From IMG/VR virus record IMGVR_UViG_3300029517_000011: a stretch of DNA of 31,484 nt; one strand, written 5' to 3'. How positions within the stretch are numbered: the stretch's first letter is position 1; the number at the start of each line of letters is the position of its first letter. The position numbers were made by a program, and so were the translations under genes. Shown one piece after another: positions 4,561 through 28,300 of this stretch. This DNA comes from a virus (Duplodnaviria > Heunggongvirae > Uroviricota > Caudoviricetes). The notes beneath the pieces are model-generated. The model had not been told where the DNA came from. It ran no database searches and saw only the letters and a program-made list of their open reading frames with translations.

Positions 4561-4708
4561 ATACAGCGAACTCCATTGGTTTAGTTGGATATTTACTGTG
4601 CTGGACAAAAACGGTTTGCGGGGAAATCTTAGTTAAGTAGAATGACTGCGGGTGCTTGAGGCTATCTGCCTCGGGCATGGACACCAACGGCAGATAGAGA
4701 AAAGCCCC

Positions 4709-6584
4709 AGTTAACATTACGCGTCCTGCAAGACGCTTAACATTAATCTGAGGCCAATTTCATGCTAGACACATGTAGGTTAGCCTCTTACGTGCCGAAA
4801 GGCACGGAGAAGCAGGCTATTGTTAACACCAAGCTGTAATGTCCCCTTTGAACCATTCTAAAATGTCCCCAGACAATTCTCTGGGGGATTTTTCATGACC
4901 AAAGAAACTGTTACGATGAGTCATAAGGAACTCCACCGACTTCAGATTATTCAGGAGTCAATTAATCGACATATTACTCAGGAACAAGCTGCGGCACGCA
5001 TTGGCATTTCTATTCGGCAGGTTAAACGTCTGGTGCAACGGTATAGAAATGAAGGGCCTTCTGGTCTGGTTTCCCACCGACGTGGAAAGCGTCCTAATAA
5101 TTCCTTTTCTACTGAATTCAGAGCAACAGTAATTTCACTCCTCAAAGGCCGTTACGCTGATTTTGGACCTACGTTTGCGTGCGAAAAATTGCGCGAGATA
5201 CACGGTTTATCTTTATCCGTTGAAACTCTCAGAAAGTGGATGATAGAAGAGGGGTTATGGCGTGAACGCCGTCGTAAAATTGCCCGTATATATCAACGCC
5301 GCATGCGACGACCATCTTACGGTGAACTGATCCAGATTGATGGCTCACCTCATGACTGGTTTGAAAATCGAGGCCCCAGATGTACACTGATCGTTTTCAT
5401 TGATGATGCCACCAGTGCGTTGATGGCGTTGCGTTTTGTGCCTGCTGAAACAACCCGGGCTTACATGGAAACCCTCCGGGGTTACCTTAATGATCATGGC
5501 GTACCGCTCGCTCTCTACTCTGATAGACACAGTATATTCAGGGTAAATAACCCAGAGCGGGAAGGTGAGCTGACCCAGTTCACTCGTGCGATAAAGACAC
5601 TGGGCATCGAGCCAATCCATGCCAACAGCCCGCAGGCAAAAGGGCGGGTAGAGCGCGCCAATCAGACACTACAGGACAGGCTGGTCAAAGAAATGCGGCT
5701 TCAGAATATCAGTGATATTGAAACAGCAAATGCATGGTTGCCGACCTTTATTGAAGCCTATAACAACCGGTTCGCTACGTCGCCTCGTACTACTGATAAT
5801 GCTCATCTTGATGTGCACCATTCTGAAGAGGAACTGGGTTATATCTTCAGCCTACAGGCGAAGCGCGTTCTGTCTAAAAATCTCACTTTCCAGTACAAAA
5901 GCAGTGCGTTTCAGGTACGCAGTGAGGGCCGGGGATATCGACTTAGGCATTCGGTTGTTACTGTATGCGAGAACTTTGACGGTGAAATTAACGTTCTGTA
6001 TGACGGGAAAGCGCTGGGCTGGGAAAAGTATGTTGATGGCCCGGAGCCTATACCACTGGATGATGAAAAGAGTGTCCATGAACGAGTGGATAATGCCCGT
6101 ATTGATTTACGCTCAAAATACTATGTTAAACCTAAAGCTGACCATCCCTGGCTTACGCGCCGAACGCAAAGTCATCAGCAAGTTAAGCCCCCGAAGTTAC
6201 CTAAAAAGAAGCCTGATCCCGATAAAAAAGATTGAAACCAAGATCGATTCGGTTGAGTGCATATCCATTCATAGGGTAGATTCTTAAGTCGCGTTTCTGG
6301 TGTTCATTTTCGGGTGGTTTGTTACTTGTTTTACCGGGGATATGCCAGAAACGCGCTGAGTCAGTCTGGGCGGTGCGCGTAATGAGGCGTTATGGTAAAT
6401 AGCCTATGCTAATGTCCGCTAAGAGCAAGAAGCGGAAGTTGGCAGTTTTGTGGACTGTCCCCACAAAAGTGACTACAGAAATAGTTGCAATTCATAATTG
6501 ATCATGGGTTGTCAGTTAAACTCGTGGCGATTTAAATAGACTAATTGGGAGTGCGTCCATTACTTATATCTTGTAATGTTAACT
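4709..6584 (+). mobile_element. Insertion sequence with a single rve-type DDE transposase; ends not resolved (4709 and 6584 are only a provisional 12-bp inverted match)
   Basis: Single transposase gene 4895-6235 with no second IS gene, interrupting the phage nin-like region. AGTTAACATTAC (4709-4720) is the reverse complement of 6573-6584. No convincing longer terminal inverted repeat found by eye. Confidence 0.3.
4895..6235 (+). CDS. IS transposase, HTH N-terminus plus rve integrase-core DDE domain (446 aa); IS481/ISNCY-like architecture
   Basis: ORF track 4895-6235. N-terminal HTH (ITQEQAAARIGISIRQVKRLV). Catalytic-core-like segments LIQIDGSPHDW, ALYSDRHSIF and ANSPQAKGRVERANQTL fit D, D, E spacing of retroviral-integrase-type transposases. 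SD GGGGGA sits inside a hairpin (4867-4886) before the ATG. Confidence 0.85.
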   Translation: MTKETVTMSHKELHRLQIIQESINRHITQEQAAARIGISIRQVKRLVQRYRNEGPSGLVSHRRGKRPNNSFSTEFRATVISLLKGRYADFGPTFACEKLREIHGLSLSVETLRKWMIEEGLWRERRRKIARIYQRRMRRPSYGELIQIDGSPHDWFENRGPRCTLIVFIDDATSALMALRFVPAETTRAYMETLRGYLNDHGVPLALYSDRHSIFRVNNPEREGELTQFTRAIKTLGIEPIHANSPQAKGRVERANQTLQDRLVKEMRLQNISDIETANAWLPTFIEAYNNRFATSPRTTDNAHLDVHHSEEELGYIFSLQAKRVLSKNLTFQYKSSAFQVRSEGRGYRLRHSVVTVCENFDGEINVLYDGKALGWEKYVDGPEPIPLDDEKSVHERVDNARIDLRSKYYVKPKADHPWLTRRTQSHQQVKPPKLPKKKPDPDKKD

Positions 6585-6630
6585 ATCAGAAATGATACAA
6601 AGATAATATGTCTTTAAAGAAAAGGCTGAT

Positions 6631-6657
6631 GGCGAAAAGTGGCCCGATGAGGGCCAC
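6631..6657 (-). terminator. Intrinsic terminator downstream of flxA
   Basis: On the minus strand: stem GTGGCCC / GGGCCAC with a 5-nt loop followed by a U-run (complement of GGCGAAAA at 6631-6638). Confidence 0.55.
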
Positions 6658-6671
6658 AATACGGCTGTCAC

Positions 6672-7004
6672 TTAGACGTAAATATCAATGGTGCCAGCGG
6701 TATTTGTATCGTCTTTTTTCTCTTCTTTTTTATCAGGCTGAACTGTCGCGTCTTCATTCTTTTTCTCTGCCTGCTGCCTTAACAACTGCTCCAGTTGAGC
6801 CCAGAGGCTTTCAATTTGCTTCTGTACCAATGCAGCCATTTCTTTTTTCTGCTGTGTCGTCATCCCCTCTTCCGATGAGATTTTCCCAAGCTTTTCAGTC
6901 AGCACCTGAATTTGTCTTGTGATTTTGGCTATTTCTGATGTTCCTTCCGGGGCGGAGTTGTTTGAAATAACGGTTGAGGTATTTCCCTGAATTGTGACAG
7001 ACAT
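6672..7004 (-). CDS. flxA: FlxA-like protein (110 aa)
   Basis: ORF track 6672-7004. N-terminus MSVTIQGNTSTVISNNSA and 110-aa length match my recollection of E. coli Qin FlxA. Preceded by SD AAAAGGAGAAA and a sigma-28 consensus promoter. Confidence 0.7.
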   Translation of the reverse strand: MSVTIQGNTSTVISNNSAPEGTSEIAKITRQIQVLTEKLGKISSEEGMTTQQKKEMAALVQKQIESLWAQLEQLLRQQAEKKNEDATVQPDKKEEKKDDTNTAGTIDIYV

Positions 7005-7027
7005 AGATTTCTCCTTTTAAAAAAGCA

Positions 7028-7054
7028 CTATCGGCATGAACAAAAAAATCTTTA
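7028..7054 (-). promoter_or_regulatory. Sigma-28 (FliA) type promoter for flxA: TAAAGATT-N11-GCCGATAG
   Basis: Minus-strand sequence TAAAGATTTTTTTGTTCATGCCGATAG matches the FliA consensus TAAAGTTT-N11-GCCGATAA at 7/8 and 7/8 positions with the canonical 11-nt spacer, about 25 nt upstream of the flxA ATG. Confidence 0.7.
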
Positions 7055-7206
7055 ATCGTATTTCTTGTGTCATTAATTGTTTGATGTTCAGATTGTTTTC
7101 CTCGCGGGCTGGCGCGCCTCAGAAAGTAAAGCTTGTTGACAGGGGTAAACGTTCGGCAATAATTTTCTGCCGCATGCGGGTGTTGCATAAAACGTGTTAC
7201 GTTCCT

Positions 7207-7512
7207 TTATCGACAGGTCAGGTCACCGCTCACCCGCCGACGAGAAAGCAACACTGACATGCTAAAGCAAAAAATAGATGAATAAGTTGAGTTGTGCATA
7301 TGTAGCCTGACCGTCACAAAGTATATGGTGTCTGTACCAGTAAGATGATGGCCGGACTCTTTAAAAACGAGCTGACCTGCACAATACAGGATGGACTTAG
7401 CAATGGCTGCTCCTGGCACAAAGCGGACAGTGATCACCGTTCTTACGACTACTTTCTGACTTCCTTCGTGACTTGCCCTAAGCATGTTGTAGTGCGATAC
7501 TTGTAATGACAT
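7207..7512 (-). CDS. Hypothetical 101-aa ORF (possibly YdfV-like by position); may be non-coding
   Basis: ORF track 7207-7512 between flxA and relB, same strand as flxA. Composition is not convincingly protein-like and it overlaps the relBE promoter/operator. Confidence 0.25.
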   Translation of the reverse strand: MSLQVSHYNMLRASHEGSQKVVVRTVITVRFVPGAAIAKSILYCAGQLVFKESGHHLTGTDTIYFVTVRLHMHNSTYSSIFCFSMSVLLSRRRVSGDLTCR

Positions 7513-7525
7513 TTGTAATTACAAG
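7473..7525 (+). promoter_or_regulatory. relBE promoter with operator palindrome (relO-like)
   Basis: TTGCCC (7473-7478), 17-bp spacer, GATACT (7496-7501), overlapped by inverted repeat CTTGTAAT-N10-ATTACAAG (7500-7525). SD AAGAGGTG precedes relB ATG 7537. Confidence 0.55.
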
Positions 7526-7536
7526 AGGTGTAAGAC

Positions 7537-7776
7537 ATGGGTAGCATTAACCTGCGTATTGACGATGAACTTAAAGCGCGTTCTTACGCCGCGCTTGAAA
7601 AAATGGGTGTAACTCCTTCTGAAGCGCTTCGTCTCATGCTCGAGTATATCGCTGACAATGAACGCTTGCCGTTCAAACAGACACTCCTGAGTGATGAAGA
7701 TGCTGAACTTGTGGAGATAGTGAAAGAACGGCTTCGTAATCCTAAGCCAGTACGTGTGACGCTGGATGAACTCTGA
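7537..7776 (+). CDS. relB: RelB antitoxin (79 aa)
   Basis: ORF track 7537-7776. MGSINLRIDDELKARSYA...KPVRVTLDEL matches E. coli RelB as I recall it. Stop overlaps the relE start (TGATG). Confidence 0.9.
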   Translation: MGSINLRIDDELKARSYAALEKMGVTPSEALRLMLEYIADNERLPFKQTLLSDEDAELVEIVKERLRNPKPVRVTLDEL

Positions 7777-8063
7777 TGGCGTATTTTCTGGATTTTGACG
7801 AGCGGGCACTAAAGGAATGGCGAAAGCTGGGCTCGACGGTACGTGAACAGTTGAAAAAGAAGCTGGTTGAAGTACTTGAGTCACCCCGGATTGAAGCAAA
7901 CAAGCTCCGTGGTATGCCTGATTGTTACAAGATTAAGCTCCGGTCTTCAGGCTATCGCCTTGTATACCAGGTTATAGACGAGAAAGTTGTCGTTTTCGTG
8001 ATTTCTGTTGGGAAAAGAGAACGCTCGGAAGTATATAGCGAGGCGGTCAAACGCATTCTCTGA
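7776..8063 (+). CDS. relE: RelE mRNA-interferase toxin (95 aa)
   Basis: ORF track 7776-8063. MAYFLDFDERALKEWRKLG...; RelE/ParE-family size and position immediately after relB. Confidence 0.9.
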   Translation: MAYFLDFDERALKEWRKLGSTVREQLKKKLVEVLESPRIEANKLRGMPDCYKIKLRSSGYRLVYQVIDEKVVVFVISVGKRERSEVYSEAVKRIL

Positions 8064-8134
8064 ACCAAAGCATGACATCTCTGTTTCGCACCGAAGGTGA
8101 CACTTCTGCTTTGCGTTGACAGGAGAAGCAGGCT

Positions 8135-8290
8135 ATGAAGCAGCAAAAGGCGATGTTAATCGCCCTGATCGTCATCTGTTTAACCGTCATAGTGACGGCA
8201 CTGGTAACGAGGAAAGACCTCTGCGAGGTACGAATCCGAACCGGCCAGACGGAGGTCGCTGTCTTCACAGCTTACGAACCTGAGGAGTAA
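8135..8290 (+). CDS. hokD: Hok-family small membrane toxin, HokD/RelF-like (51 aa)
   Basis: ATG 8135 to TAA 8288-8290, translated by hand: MKQQKAMLIALIVICLTVIVTALVTRKDLCEVRIRTGQTEVAVFTAYEPEE. Below the ORF-track size cut-off. Hok-family hydrophobic N-terminus with the conserved Cys. Confidence 0.85.
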   Translation: MKQQKAMLIALIVICLTVIVTALVTRKDLCEVRIRTGQTEVAVFTAYEPEE

Positions 8291-8358
8291 GAGACCAGGC
8301 GGGGGAGAAATCCCTCGCCACCTCTGATGTGTCAGGCATCCTCAACGCACCCGCACTT

Positions 8359-8385
8359 AACCCGCTTCGGCGGGTTTTGTTTTTT
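8359..8385 (+). terminator. Intrinsic terminator after relBE-hokD
   Basis: Stem AACCCGC / GCGGGTT with TTCG loop followed by TTGTTTTTT. Confidence 0.7.
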
Positions 8386-10545: not shown

Positions 10546-10573
10546 AAACGGCCTAAGGGCCGTTTTATTCTTC
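10546..10573. terminator. Convergent hairpin terminator shared by Q (plus) and the inverted cassette (minus)
   Basis: Perfect 8-bp stem AAACGGCC / GGCCGTTT with TAAG loop at 10546-10565, followed on the plus strand by TATTCTTC. Lies 17 nt after the Q stop and directly after the stop of minus-strand gene 10565-10993. Confidence 0.6.
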
Positions 10574-10993
10574 TTTAGTAACTTCAATAGGTAAAACTTC
10601 TACATTCTTACCAATGTTAACAATCTTTCTAACAGTTTCTTCCCGATCAGCAATAAGCTCAGCTTTAAATTTCTCGCTTAGATGAGGGCTTTTCAGTTGC
10701 TCATCAATACCTTTTAAATCTCTCTCAAGGCGATTTCTTAGGGCGGCTTCGGCTGGAGACTCAAGTCCATGTCGATTGATAACATACAACATAATGTAGG
10801 TTAGCATTGCTGACACTAATGGGGCGAGGGCATACAAAAAAGCTCTCCATTCACTATTAGGGTCAGGCGCCAATAGTGGTACCAATGTAGTTAGAACTGC
10901 GCCAATCCCGCCTGTTGTTAGACCAGAATTACTACTTAAAATGCTTTTTTTATCACCGCTCATTATTTGACTGCCTGTGCGCGGTTGCATCAT
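10565..10993 (-). CDS. Cassette gene 3: membrane protein (about 142 aa, two predicted TM helices, charged coiled C-terminus)
   Basis: ORF track 10565-10996; start among clustered ATG/TTG codons at 10990-10996. Hydrophobic stretches GIGAVLTTLVPLLA and FLYALAPLVSAMLTYIMLYVI. Overlaps the end of cassette gene 2. Confidence 0.6.
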   Translation of the reverse strand: MMQPRTGSQIMSGDKKSILSSNSGLTTGGIGAVLTTLVPLLAPDPNSEWRAFLYALAPLVSAMLTYIMLYVINRHGLESPAEAALRNRLERDLKGIDEQLKSPHLSEKFKAELIADREETVRKIVNIGKNVEVLPIEVTKEE

Positions 10994-11216
10994 CAATTAG
11001 CTCAACGATCTTCTTTCCATCTTTAGCATCTAAGTGGATAGTAATCGTTTTTTCAAGCATGCGTTCAGCACTGTAAAACCTTAGTTCTACGATTTTTGTA
11101 GGAAAAATTTTACGCCACAACAACGCGGAACCAGCATAAACAAAGCGATAGAAGGTCGGGAGACTTACAAGCACCCCCAACCAAAAAACGATTTGTAAAA
11201 GCTGTTGCTGAATCAT
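10953..11216 (-). CDS. Cassette gene 2: small membrane protein (87 aa, one N-terminal TM helix)
   Basis: ORF track 10953-11216. LLQIVFWLGVLVSLPTFYRFVYAG hydrophobic segment. Starts 15 nt after the stop of cassette gene 1. Confidence 0.6.
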   Translation of the reverse strand: MIQQQLLQIVFWLGVLVSLPTFYRFVYAGSALLWRKIFPTKIVELRFYSAERMLEKTITIHLDAKDGKKIVELIDDATAHRQSNNER

Positions 11217-11231
11217 TAGTTTCTACCAAAG

Positions 11232-12113
11232 CTAGATCAATTTTTTCCCTTGAATCACGCGATGACGAAGTACTTTCTTGATAACATACTTTTCTGTTTG
11301 TCCTCGTGCGGAAGTTGTACGTGTTGTTTCTAGAAGCACAGAAAACATATCTTCACTTGTGATCGTTCCCTCTGCTTGCCTTACTTTAGCTAAAAACTCA
11401 TAGTCTGTAAGTAGTACGGAGTGCTCATCTTGGTTGTAGTCCATCCTCCACCCCTTCTCACTATGAAAGTTAACTTGGGTAAATTTTACATTAACCTCTT
11501 TTTCTTCAACTGTTTTGGTCAAAAGCGTCCCTCTGGGAAGGGGTTTAATCTCTTCAGTTTGCTCTCCTTCAAGCTTGAGCAAAACTTTATCATTCTCATC
11601 TACAATTTTAAAAATGGGAGAGTCTTTACCATCTAAAGGAGCCTGAACAACAGAAATCAACGCATCCCGAATTGTTGGCTCAGTTACCAAGGTTGCAACT
11701 GCTGATGAGCATTCAATCTCACCATCTTCAAATTCAAGAACAGCCTTATCTGTTCCTGCTTTTTTGGTAATCGAAACAACTTTTTTTGAGCCTAATTGTC
11801 TTATTAACGATAAAGCGGTGGCATGAGCTGTTGCGCCCACAGTTCCAACAATCCCGATAGTTTGCAGAACGTCAATTGCATGCGGTAGGAGTTGCACTAC
11901 AGTATATGCAATACCCACAGATCCTTTCTGGATGGGGGCAGTGACTAAAATTTTTACAGATTTGTTGCCCTCATTTAACAAGCTATCAGCTTTATTAATA
12001 AGAGTTGTCATGGAAAGTATTGATTTACCAAGTGTTTCAGCGTCAATAGCATGCTTTGACAATTCTTTATCATTGGCGTCATAAAACACCTTAAAGGAAG
12101 TTGACTTCTCCAT
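11232..12113 (-). CDS. Cassette gene 1: soluble protein of unknown function (293 aa)
   Basis: ORF track 11232-12113. SD AAGGA 5 nt before ATG (minus-strand mRNA ...gcatagcAAGGAccgtcATG). No recognisable catalytic motif (no P-loop, HxD, etc.). Confidence 0.7.
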   Translation of the reverse strand: MEKSTSFKVFYDANDKELSKHAIDAETLGKSILSMTTLINKADSLLNEGNKSVKILVTAPIQKGSVGIAYTVVQLLPHAIDVLQTIGIVGTVGATAHATALSLIRQLGSKKVVSITKKAGTDKAVLEFEDGEIECSSAVATLVTEPTIRDALISVVQAPLDGKDSPIFKIVDENDKVLLKLEGEQTEEIKPLPRGTLLTKTVEEKEVNVKFTQVNFHSEKGWRMDYNQDEHSVLLTDYEFLAKVRQAEGTITSEDMFSVLLETTRTTSARGQTEKYVIKKVLRHRVIQGKKLI

Positions 12114-12409: not shown

Positions 12410-12485
12410 GGCCCTTTAGCTCAGTGGTGAGAGCGAGCGACTCATAATCGCCAGGTCGCTGGTTCAAATCCAGCAAGGGCCACCA
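12410..12485 (+). tRNA. tRNA with anticodon CAU, ileX/ileZ-like (tRNA-Ile2 lysidine type, or Met)
   Basis: Hand-folded cloverleaf: acceptor GGCCCTT/AAGGGCC, D-stem GCTC/GAGC, anticodon loop CUCAUAA, T-loop TTCAAAT, encoded CCA. Close to E. coli ileX as I recall it. Confidence 0.8.
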
Positions 12486-12486
12486 A

Positions 12487-12563
12487 CCGCCACTAGCTCA
12501 TCAGGAAAGAGCGTCAACCCTTTAAGTTGAGTGTGCGAGGTTCGAGTCCCCGGTGGCGGTCCA
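12487..12563 (+). tRNA. Atypical tRNA: anticodon loop CCUUUAA (formal anticodon UUU, Lys-like) with C instead of U at position 33; C1-G72 acceptor pair
   Basis: Folds as a cloverleaf (acceptor CCGCCAC/GTGGCGG, D-stem GCTC/GAGC with GG in the loop, anticodon stem TCAAC/GTTGA, T-arm GGTTCGAGTCC, encoded CCA) but has a noncanonical position 33 and an A-C mismatch in the T-stem. Confidence 0.55.
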
Positions 12564-12565
12564 GT

Positions 12566-12641
<76 letters not shown>

Positions 12642-12644
12642 TAT

Positions 12645-12719
<75 letters not shown>

Positions 12720-25364: not shown

Positions 25365-28300
25365 TTTGGGGATTGATGCGGCAGAGTTTAAAAATGAAAT
25401 TCCCCGTATCAAAAACCTTCTGAATGGTGCAGCCAGCGATGCAGAACGGTCTTCTGCCCGTATGCAGCGTTTTATGGAGCGTCAGACTCAGGCCGCCCGG
25501 CAGACAATGCAGGCGGCTTCTTCGGCTGCAACAGCCGCATCCGTCCATGCGCAGACGGTGGAGAAGAGCGCACAGGCTCATGAACGCATGGCCCGCGAGG
25601 TGGAGCAAACCCGCCAGCGTATGGAGGCACTGAGCCAGAAAATGCGCGAGGAACAGGCGCAGGCCATGGCTCTGGCGGAGGCTCAGGATAAAGCAGCTGC
25701 TGCGTTTTATCGTCAGATTGACAGTGTGAAACAGGCCAGTGCGGGGCTGCAGGAATTACAGCGTATTCAGCAGCAGATCCGACAGGCCAGAAACAGTGGC
25801 GGGATTGGTCAGCAGGATTATCTGGCGCTGATTTCTGAGGTTACGGCGAAAACCCGTGTTCTTACGCAGGCTGAGGAAGAGTCTACCCGACAGAAAGTGG
25901 CGTTTATCCGTCAGCTTAAAGAGCAGGCAACCCGCCAGAATCTTTCTTCTTCTGAGTTGCTTCGTGCCAGGGCTGCCCAGCTGGGGGTAAGCAGTGCTGC
26001 AGAAGTGTATATCCGCAAAATGGAGCAGGCAGGAAAAGCCACGCATTCGCTGGGTCTGAAAAGTGCAGCAGCCCGCCAGGAGATAGGCGTTCTGATAGGT
26101 GAACTGGCCCGTGGCAATTTAGGAGCGCTGAGGGGATCCGGGATAACGCTGGCTAACCGTGCCGGATGGATAGACACACTGATGTCACCGAAAGGCATGA
26201 TGCCAGGCGCGGTTATTGGCGGTATTGCCGCGGCCGTCTATGGTCTGGGTAAAGCCTGGTATGACGGTCAGAAGGAGGGGGAAGAATTTAACCGCCAGCT
26301 GTCGCTGACGGGGCATTATGCCGGAGTCACTGCCGGGCAGCTGTGGACGCTCAGTCGTGCTATTTCCGGGAATGGTATCACGCAACATGCTGCAGCCGGT
26401 GCGCTGGCTCAGGTGGTGGGGAGTGGTGCATTTCGTGGAAACGATATCGGTATGGTGGCGAGAGCTGCCGCACAGATGGAGCGATCGGTTGGCCAGTCGG
26501 TCAGCGATACCATAAATCAGTTTAAGCGGCTGAAGGATGATCCTGTAAATGCCGCGAAGGCTCTGGACAATGAGCTGCATTTTCTTACTGCCACTCAGCT
26601 TGAGCAGATACGCGTCCTTGGGGAGCAGGGGCGGTCCAGTGATGCTGCACGGATAGCCATGTCTGCACTGGCAGAGGAAACCGGTCGGCGTACTGCGGAT
26701 ATTGATAATAACCTCAATGCGCTTGGCAGTACGCTGAAGTATCTGTCTGATTTATGGAGTCGTTTCTGGGATGCGGCCATGAATATTGGTCGTGAAGACT
26801 CGCTGGATGAACAGATTGCCGCTTTACAGGAGAAAGTGTCGCGGGCGAAAAGACTCCCCTGGACGGCATCATCTTCTCAGGTTGAATACGATCAGCAGCG
26901 TCTTAACGATCTTCAGGAGAAAAAACGCCAGAAGGATTTGCAGGATGCAAAAGAGCAGGCAGAGCGGAATTATCAGGAGCAACAGAAACGCCGTAATGCT
27001 GAAAATGCTGCACTGAACCGGATGAATGAAACGGAAGCAGCACGACATCAGCGTGAAATAGCGCGTATTAATGCCATGCAGTACGCCGATCAGGCTGTCA
27101 GGGATGCGGCGATACAACGTGAAAATGAACGTTACGAGAAAGCCCTGGCATCCGGTAAGAAAAAAACACGCGAAACCCGTAATGATGAGGCCACCCGGTT
27201 ATTGCTGCAGTACAGTCAGCAACAGGCACAGGTGGAAGGACAGATTGCTGCTGCCAGACAGTCAGCAGGCATTGCCACGGAAAGGATGACAGAAGCGCAT
27301 AAACAGCTTCTGGCTCTGCAGCAGCGCATCAGCGACCTGGACGGGAAAAAACTGACGGCAGATGAAAAGAGTGTGCTGGCCCGTAAAGATGAACTGATTC
27401 AGGCACTGACGCTGCTGGATGTAAAACAGCAGGAGCTTCAGAAACAGACGGCACTCAACGAGCTGAAGAAAAAAACAATTCAGCTGACCAGTCAACTGGC
27501 TGAAGAAGAGCGCGCTCAGCGTCAGCAACATGACCTGGATATCGCCACGGTGGGTATGGGTGATCAGCAGCGACAGCGATATCAGGTACAACTGAGTCTT
27601 CGCCAGAAATACCAGCAACAGCTGGAGCAGTTGAGGCGGGATAGTGAGCAGAAAGGGACATATAACACGGATGACTACAGAAAGGCCGAGCAGGCGCTGA
27701 CGGAGAGCCTGAACCGACAACTGAATGAGAATCGCCGTTACTGGCAACAGCTTGAAGTTGTACAGGGTAACTGGAAAAACGGAGTCCTGCGTGCATTTCA
27801 GGATTTTACCGTGGATGCAGATAATACGGCAGAAACAGCAGAACAGGTGTTCTCGTCAGCCTTCAGCAACATGGGAAATGGCCTGGCAACTTTTGTCACT
27901 ACCGGCAAACTCAATTTCAAATCCTTCACCTCTTCGGTGCTGTCAGATATGGCGAAAATCCTGGCGCAGGCAACCATGATGAAATCGATAAAAGGGATTG
28001 GCAGTGTACTGGGATTTGATCTCAGCAGCCTTTCCCTGAATGCCAATGGGGGGATTTATCAGTCTGCTGATTTGAGTCGTTACAGTGGCACGGTGGTTAA
28101 CCGTCCGACGTTTTTTGCTTTTGCAAAAGGCGCGGGTGTGATGGGGGAAGCGGGACCTGAAGCCATTCTGCCATTGCGTCGTGGTGCTGACGGTAAGCTG
28201 GGGGTTGTGGCGGATATTGGGGGTTCAGGTATGGCGATGTTTTCCCCGCAGTACAACATCGAGATCAATAACGATGGCACGAACGGGCAGATAGGTCCGG

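Follow-up and report, generated by a model that had tools for sequence, protein, structure and literature searches.

We analysed a 31,484-nt stretch of Caudoviricetes DNA (IMG/VR virus record IMGVR_UViG_3300029517_000011), hereafter the window, and conclude that its minus-strand segment 7054..6635 is almost certainly the flxA transcription unit of an Escherichia coli Qin-type lambdoid prophage, driven by the flagellar sigma factor FliA (sigma-28). The FliA promoter of flxA is not a discovery, as it has been in the literature from Ide & Kutsukake (1997) onward. Our comparisons bear instead on its history. The promoter is a conserved, ancestral attribute of the FlxA family that is not specific to phages, and flxA appears to have reached the prophage as the cargo of a transposon and not by phage recombination. 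The architecture of this transposon and its targeting of hok genes are the only elements that might be new here.

The minus strand from 7054 to 7028 reads TAAAGATT-TTTTTGTTCAT-GCCGATAG, followed by TGCTTTTTTAAAAGGAGAAATCT and the flxA ATG. Compared with the FliA consensus TAAAGTTT-N11-GCCGATAA, as given in PMC2859248, it matches at 14 of 16 positions and its spacer is exactly 11 nt, confirming the sigma-28 promoter that a first-pass annotation had proposed here from the letters alone. It is the only site in the window within three mismatches of the consensus; at this tolerance 0.16 sites are expected by chance and at least one occurs in 15 of 100 shuffles. The full string TAAAGATTTTTTTGTTCATGCCGATAG is present in a single copy, at 7054..7028 (-), and in none of 100 shuffled sequences. 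The same annotation had named a FliA weight matrix as a check, on which a poor score would count against the promoter. For the matrix we took the 51 other motifs that the FliA chromatin immunoprecipitation sequencing (ChIP-seq) study of Fitzgerald et al. 2014 (PMC4183435) lists in its Table 2, and the flxA promoter scored 20.4-20.5 bits, the top of the window by about 6 bits. When the whole window was shuffled 1000 times with its dinucleotides preserved, just 2 shuffles attained 20.4 bits. Ranked by leave-one-out among 52 FliA sites, the flxA promoter came about 7th-8th, beside tsr and modABC. The promoters of fliC, tar, flgMN, motAB and tsr have the same two-block build, and the flxA score falls within their range. 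From the end of the -10 element to the flxA ATG is 23 nt, a stretch that includes the Shine-Dalgarno sequence, and the homologues share this geometry. The runner-up matrix match (27798-27825, plus strand; 14.7 bits) lies in the tape-measure open reading frame (ORF) and was rejected as chance level, its score being attained in 186 of 1000 shuffles.

The remaining parts of the unit were also borne out (Table 1). The ORF had been described as FlxA-like, and its product matches the Pfam FlxA model PF14282 over residues 7-101 at 53.8 bits (cut-off 26.3). The gene had been said to end in its own terminator. We found a hairpin that begins 14 nt past the stop codon and consists of a 7-bp GC-rich stem (6657..6651 paired with 6645..6639), a 5-nt loop and UUUU at 6638..6635, with a fold energy of -18.1 kcal/mol (z = -2.6). 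We judge it a genuine, if modest, terminator. The orientation of the gene is likewise as described: flxA and ydfV lie on the minus strand, antisense to phage early-right and late transcription, and the phage genes other than the repressor are all on the plus strand, including cro, relBE, hokD, rem, ydfU, rusA, Q and the genes for replication, lysis, head and tail.

The unit is nearly identical to that of K-12. Between 6600 and 7210 the window differs from K-12 MG1655 by one base in 611 nt, the spacer position 7039, and the K-12 record annotates the flxA region as the cryptic prophage Qin. The K-12 promoter flxAp (Qin, b1566) thus shares the -35 and -10 elements, the spacing, the Shine-Dalgarno sequence, the 110-aa ORF and the terminator with the window. 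Of 5426 complete E. coli genomes, 1213 contain a match of at least 95% identity to a query of 6400-7400, in sequence annotated as flxA/ydfV, and in many of them the match is 100%. In GenBank, phage PhiR42_1 (from ECOR13) carries a gene labelled 'Protein FlxA (FliA regulated)'.

FliA dependence of the K-12 allele is well documented. Fitzgerald et al. 2014 (PMC4183435) attributed the FliA ChIP-seq site TAAAGATTTTTTTGTGCATGCCGATAGT to flxA, measured flxA RNA by RNA-seq at 280 in motile wild-type cells and 2 in cells lacking fliA, and counted flxA among the 'well-characterized FliA-dependent promoters', citing Ide & Kutsukake 1997. In the microarray study of Zhao et al. 2007 (PMC1935009), flxA changed -28.4-fold when fliA was deleted and +8.2-fold 5 min after FliA was induced. 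Genomic SELEX (systematic evolution of ligands by exponential enrichment) gave a peak in the ydfV/flxA spacer for the RpoF holoenzyme alone (Shimada et al. 2017; PMC5493296). As flxA RNA was near zero in the K-12 fliA deletion, there is no significant read-through from ydfV or transcription by sigma-70. Going by the title of Ide & Kutsukake 1997, as cited in PMC4183435, flxA is not required for motility. In this dispensability, as in being carried on mobile DNA, flxA differs from fliC, tar, flgMN, motAB and tsr.

We propose that RNA polymerase with FliA would recognise the -35 element TAAAGATT and the -10 element GCCGATAG, 11 nt apart, and would start transcription about 7-10 nt past the -10 element, near 7021-7018. 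The resulting mRNA would be short and monocistronic, with AAGGAG and the 110-codon ORF, and would end at the hairpin and UUUU. FliA synthesis is under the control of FlhDC, and FlgM keeps FliA inactive until the hook-basal body is complete. With FliA controlled by FlhDC and held by FlgM in this way, flxA would be a class-3 flagellar gene expressed from a repressed prophage.

Next, the FlxA family was examined for the age of this promoter. A phmmer search of 1.8 billion representative proteins returned just 48 FlxA relatives, so the family is small. Genomic context was looked up for homologues at 23-86% protein identity. In Pantoea and other Erwiniaceae the flxA-like gene is chromosomal, and five orthologues share the arrangement gltX ... 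flxA-like, LysR, SBF transporter, QSregVF_b, ligA. This suggests that Erwiniaceae inherit the family vertically, as part of their sigma-28 regulon. Other lineages were found beside a TraI relaxase gene, in an Enterobacter island with an integrase, and on Citrobacter IncFIB plasmids. A FliA-type promoter stands 22-31 nt ahead of the start codon in all the lineages examined. In seven of nine it scores 16-20 bits and is the best or near-best match of its locus where this was computed; the other two have a 12-nt spacer and hence lower scores, of 9.0 and 11.6 bits. When the nine upstream regions were aligned, the sole invariant columns were T-A in the -35 element, CCGATA in the -10 element, the GG of the Shine-Dalgarno sequence and the ATG.

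The same conservation holds among close relatives. We collected 84 further close loci, 5 from species-level genomes and 79 from viral contigs, and 83 retained the promoter. Variation was mostly at the spacer base 7039 (G in 68, T in 5, A in 2). The one locus without it is L097:560-740 on an IMG/VR contig, where what we take to be an IS5 end stands directly upstream of the flxA ATG in place of the FliA promoter. The scan of species-level genomes yielded only the five Qin-type FlxA loci; either Qin-type FlxA is taxonomically narrow or the search patterns were overly strict. Taken together, the presence of FliA promoters before chromosomal, plasmid and island FlxA genes argues that the promoter predates the association with phages and that flxA was captured together with it. 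That the promoter accompanies flxA on chromosome, plasmid, island and phage also argues for a conserved, flagellum-linked role of FlxA.

Within the prophage, flxA lies in a 3301-bp transposon-like unit inserted in a hok/sok locus (Table 1). The right inverted repeat (IRR) is the best inverted match to the left inverted repeat (IRL), TGTTAACACCAAGCTGTAATGTCCCCTT, in the 1.9 kb searched (6236-8130), and a perfect 15-bp direct repeat, GGAGAAGCAGGCTAT, stands on both sides of the unit. Since inverted repeats and a target duplication bound the insertion, delivery of flxA by a transposon seems the best account of its entry. On the left of the unit, the Rfam sok family (RF01794) matches 4650-4821 at 104 bits with no hok ORF behind it. 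Phages HannyBb and PPompW provide the empty site: their hok/sok is uninterrupted, with a 5' half that matches 4630-4820 and a 3' half that matches 8121-8384, the two halves overlapping by about 15 nt.

A single transposon insertion also explains the K-12 arrangement, in which flxA and relBE, the paradigm toxin-antitoxin pair, lie beside a hokD that lacks its regulator. K-12 keeps only the equivalent of window 6051-8384, having lost the rest of the insertion sequence (IS) and the 5' half of hok/sok. Its ydfW consists of the final 49 transposase codons (window 6085-6234, plus strand; L002:7175-7324 in K-12), with 48 of 49 residues identical, whereas the adjacent ISEsa1 transposase gene is intact in the window. 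The right arm of the unit, 7409-8121, comprises the relB promoter region, relB, relE and the IRR. ydfV, part of which is cargo and part right arm, matched no model in Pfam, NCBIfam, PHROGs or PADLOC, and could be a chimera without a function. A near-consensus sigma-70 promoter, TTGACA-16-AATAAT (11/12), lies at 7136-7163 (+) in the ydfV-flxA spacer; it is directed away from flxA, antisense to ydfV, and is about 370 nt upstream of relB.

We then checked how this unit is built elsewhere. The match of other ISEsa1 copies to the window stops at about 6440, and the right arm with relBE is at least 99% identical in 703 plasmids. Together with the transposase arm, this right arm (7409-8121; 98.6-98.9% identical) encloses any of three cargos. 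One is flxA, in the window and on the IncFII plasmid pYK16-mcr-10, which has the same 3301-bp unit with a different target duplication. Another is cytochrome b with a CDF transporter (plus a secondary IS) on IncHI plasmids, and the last is the metal-resistance pair ncr and chr on a Klebsiella pneumoniae plasmid. Among three plasmids that we examined, the cargo was for nickel/chromate resistance or cation efflux. Three more copies interrupt hok alleles on IncHI and IncFII plasmids, a different allele in each case, and a 13-15-bp duplication particular to each copy abuts its two inverted repeats exactly. This argues that the unit has transposed repeatedly and prefers the hok ribosome-binding site. 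Insertion is at the hok Shine-Dalgarno sequence or start codon in four of five copies, and the unit ranges from 3.3 to 12.8 kb. The 12.8-kb unit, with ncr and chr, lies outside hok at about 204.6-217.5 kb of K. pneumoniae plasmid NZ_CP056192.1 (L113/L114). A 12-bp direct repeat, TTGTATGGGTCC, flanks it, and at its right end the outermost 10 nt are unlike those of the other copies.

The catalogued ISEsa1 is a shorter element. Harmer & Hall 2023 (PMC10132070) give its length as 1609 bp and its inverted repeats as 15/22, with 'no TSD detected' (TSD, target-site duplication), and we found that the right end of this 1609-bp form matches the IRL no better than a control region. Unlike ISEsa1 as listed, the unit described here has good inverted repeats and a target duplication, ends past relE and carries cargo. 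In line with the IS1202 family as set out in PMC10132070, it has an NF033594 (ISNCY_2) transposase and imperfect inverted repeats of about 24-28 bp, and its duplication of about 15 bp resembles those of the 16-17-bp subgroup. These comparisons suggest that the complete ISEsa1 element ends after relE and that the listed 1609-bp form may be incomplete. We would put at about even the prospect that the flxA cassette is portable cargo of an apparently undescribed transposon, laid out as IRL, ISEsa1 transposase, variable slot, relBE and IRR, that makes duplications of about 15 bp and prefers the hok Shine-Dalgarno sequence or start. If so, the K-12 relBE-hokD layout ('relBEF') and the orphan ydfW would be the scar of an insertion, and the catalogued ISEsa1, with its 1609 bp and no target duplication, would be the left arm of the element only. 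A literature search found no paper joining ISEsa1 with relE, relB or hok, which does not prove novelty, and a 2026 preprint surveying Hok proteins does not mention ISNCY. The targeting of hok and the revised limits of ISEsa1 would matter for the annotation of many resistance plasmids.

Table 1. Features of the flxA unit and its surrounding transposon in the window, with related loci elsewhere. Coordinates are window positions unless a locus is named.
Feature	Position	Strand	Remarks
-35 element TAAAGATT	7047..7054	-	7/8 vs TAAAGTTT; K-12 FliA ChIP-seq motif has identical -35
Spacer TTTTTGTTCAT, 11 nt	7036..7046	-	sole K-12 MG1655 difference at 7039 (minus-strand T here, G in K-12)
-10 element GCCGATAG	7028..7035	-	7/8 vs GCCGATAA
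Shine-Dalgarno AAGGAG, 6 nt ahead of ATG	7011..7016	-	from sequence; GG invariant among homologues
flxA coding sequence, 110 aa, ATG start	6672..7004	-	protein identical to K-12 FlxA (b1566)
Terminator-like hairpin GUGGCCC-UCAUC-GGGCCAC + UUUU	6635..6657	-	fold energy -18.1 kcal/mol, z = -2.6
Orphan 5' half of hok/sok: sok RNA and mok leader	4630..4820	+
Target-site duplication, left copy, 15 bp GGAGAAGCAGGCTAT	4806..4820	+
Transposon-like unit, 3301 bp: IRL, ISEsa1 transposase, flxA cargo, relBE, IRR	4821..8121	+
IRL TGTTAACACCAAGCTGTAATGTCCCCTT, 28 bp	4821..4848	+
Transposase, ISEsa1-type (ISNCY / IS1202-family), 446 aa, intact	4895..6235	+	NF033594, 465 bits, cut-off 250
Variable cargo: whole flxA cassette and 3' two-thirds of ydfV ORF	6441..7408
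ydfV ORF, 101 aa	7207..7512	-	straddles cargo/right-arm junction 7408/7409
relB (7537-7776) and relE (7776-8063)	7537..8063	+	in conserved right arm
IRR, 28 bp	8094..8121	-	21/28 identical to IRL
Target-site duplication, right copy, 15 bp	8122..8136	+	covers hokD Shine-Dalgarno and 'AT' of start codon
hokD ORF, 3' half of split hok/sok	8135..8290	+	no sok
Target duplication of another copy, GGAGAAGAAGCCATG	L116		in hok allele
Target duplication of another copy, GGAGAAGAAGGCCAT	L115		in hok allele
Target duplication of another copy, GAGAAGAAGGCCA	L021		in hok allele
Pantoea/Erwiniaceae chromosomal flxA-like genes with FliA promoter	L004-L006, L013-L019		conserved synteny

It is scarcely credible that the promoter motif is a chance or inactive one and that flxA is transcribed by sigma-70 or by read-through from ydfV. 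Sites with up to three mismatches are not rare, as the shuffles that contain one attest, and the spacer is one base off that of K-12; but the flxA site has just two mismatches, a matrix score that shuffled sequence almost never attains, the canonical distance to the start codon and conservation across the family. Moreover, no sigma-70-like promoter was found on the minus strand in 6300-7600, and the collapse of K-12 flxA RNA from 280 to 2 without FliA speaks against either other source of transcript. Some points do weigh against reading 7054..6635 as a FliA-driven, self-terminating unit. The published FliA data are for the K-12 allele, with G at 7039, and the allele here has T; loss of promoter function by this T is unlikely, because T also occurs in 5 of the 84 related loci and the spacer is a non-contact element. 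The position of the transcription start is inferred, as are how efficiently the terminator works and whatever FlxA may do. The terminator has four U only and was missed by a simple scan requiring five, so some read-through from flxA toward the 3' end of the transposase gene is possible.

Two further accounts concern how flxA and its promoter came to be here. The first-pass annotation saw flxA as a phage moron wired into the flagellar regulon, and in its strict sense this account has it that the prophage itself gained or evolved a FliA promoter before an accessory gene so that the gene joined the regulon. Several features fit: the gene has its own promoter and terminator and lies antisense amid phage early genes; at about 41-43% GC it is more AT-rich than the neighbouring ydfU region (53-57%); and it is missing from related phages with the same flanking genes, the slot being empty in HannyBb and occupied by paa/adfO in PPompW, yet present in PhiR42_1. 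Like the lambda morons bor and lom, it would be an extra gene of variable presence, expressed from a repressed prophage. Set against this are the FliA promoters on Pantoea/Erwiniaceae chromosomes, beside the TraI relaxase gene, on Citrobacter plasmids and in the Enterobacter island, the entry of flxA between inverted repeats and a target duplication, and the same 3301-bp unit with a different duplication on pYK16-mcr-10. We therefore consider a phage origin of the wiring quite improbable. Indeed, as the promoter is ancestral, 'moron wired into regulon' reverses the history. The notion of a moron, which reportedly goes back to Juhala/Hendrix 2000, includes acquisition and maintenance within phage genome mosaicism, and the inverted repeats, 15-bp target duplication and plasmid copies do not fit this. 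Unlike bor and lom, flxA was apparently delivered by a transposon, also occurs on plasmids, and has a promoter that is ancestral to its gene family. What survives of the moron label is the gene's own promoter and terminator and its absence from the syntenic phages. Similarly, flxA had been called a self-contained unit, which holds for its promoter, Shine-Dalgarno sequence and terminator, but what entered the prophage appears to have been the 3.3-kb ISEsa1-flxA-relBE transposon and not flxA alone. It is also possible, though we think it unlikely, that no such composite element exists and that an autonomous 1.6-kb ISEsa1 once mobilised adjacent DNA through a surrogate right end near relE. ISfinder's definition of ISEsa1 as 1609 bp, the end of left-arm homology among copies near 6440, and the aberrant right end and 12-bp direct repeat of the K. 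pneumoniae plasmid copy all favour such a one-off event. It is countered by the recurrence of one right arm around three cargos, by four hok alleles with their own 13-15-bp duplications exactly at IRL and IRR, and by the 1609-bp form itself, with its poorer inverted repeats, absent target duplication and right end no better than a control. The transposase gene is moreover essentially single copy in E. coli, with a median of one place per genome in 1166 of 5426 genomes, near the 1213 with flxA; these are two separate genome totals.

The FlxA protein itself offers few clues. Its AlphaFold model (pLDDT, the predicted local distance difference test, 64.5) has a disordered N-terminus (residues 1-18), a helical hairpin (20-42 and 50-86) and a disordered tail, and the C-terminus carries a conserved terminal motif, IDIYV/I. 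When the model was compared with PDB by Foldseek, no match had an E value under 0.6; a profile search with FlxA against PDB sequences found generic or designed coiled coils only; and no NCBIfam or PADLOC model matched FlxA. The PHROGs families that match it are of unknown function, and a 2024 y-ome review still places FlxA among uncharacterised proteins. Two very large proteins, P0131 (3361 aa) and P0147 (2729 aa), matched FlxA residues 8-51 in 17 and 7 stretches, respectively; these are surface proteins with Ig/cadherin repeats, and we rejected them as homologues, the similarity probably being one of composition or linkers.

Two published data sets touch on export. FlxA was quantified in the culture supernatant of E. 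coli DH5alpha together with FlgK, FliD, FliC, FlgL, FlgM and FlgE (PMC6391000). Cytoplasmic CheY and metabolic enzymes were in that supernatant too, so cell lysis may explain this hint. At 42 C, where export of FlgM is impaired, FlxA was among the few genes whose protein and mRNA moved in opposite directions (PMC6551532). With the family-wide promoter and the disordered N-terminus, these hints make it conceivable, though doubtful, that the flagellar export apparatus takes FlxA as a late substrate, so far unrecognised.

The prophage that carries the unit is of the Qin type but far more complete than K-12 Qin, with replication, terminase, portal, capsid and tail genes. Its content begins with a dicA-like repressor, cro, ydaT/cII and replication genes, followed by ISEsa1, flxA, ydfV, relBE, hokD, rem, ydfU, rusA and Q; past Q come four tRNA genes and then lysis, terminase, portal, ClpP-capsid and tail genes. 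Between Q and the tRNA/lysis genes, a 293-aa ORF at 11232-12113 (-) matches the PADLOC candidate defence family PDC-S42 (E = 4e-27) and phrog_3243, of unknown function; its neighbour, a 143-aa ORF at 10565-10996 (-), had no matches. The tRNA genes downstream of Q (12410-12719, plus strand) are Met-CAT, Lys-TTT, Thr-TGT and Gly-TCC, and the sets elsewhere are Ile, Thr and Gly in the closest relative and Met, Lys and Arg in PPompW.

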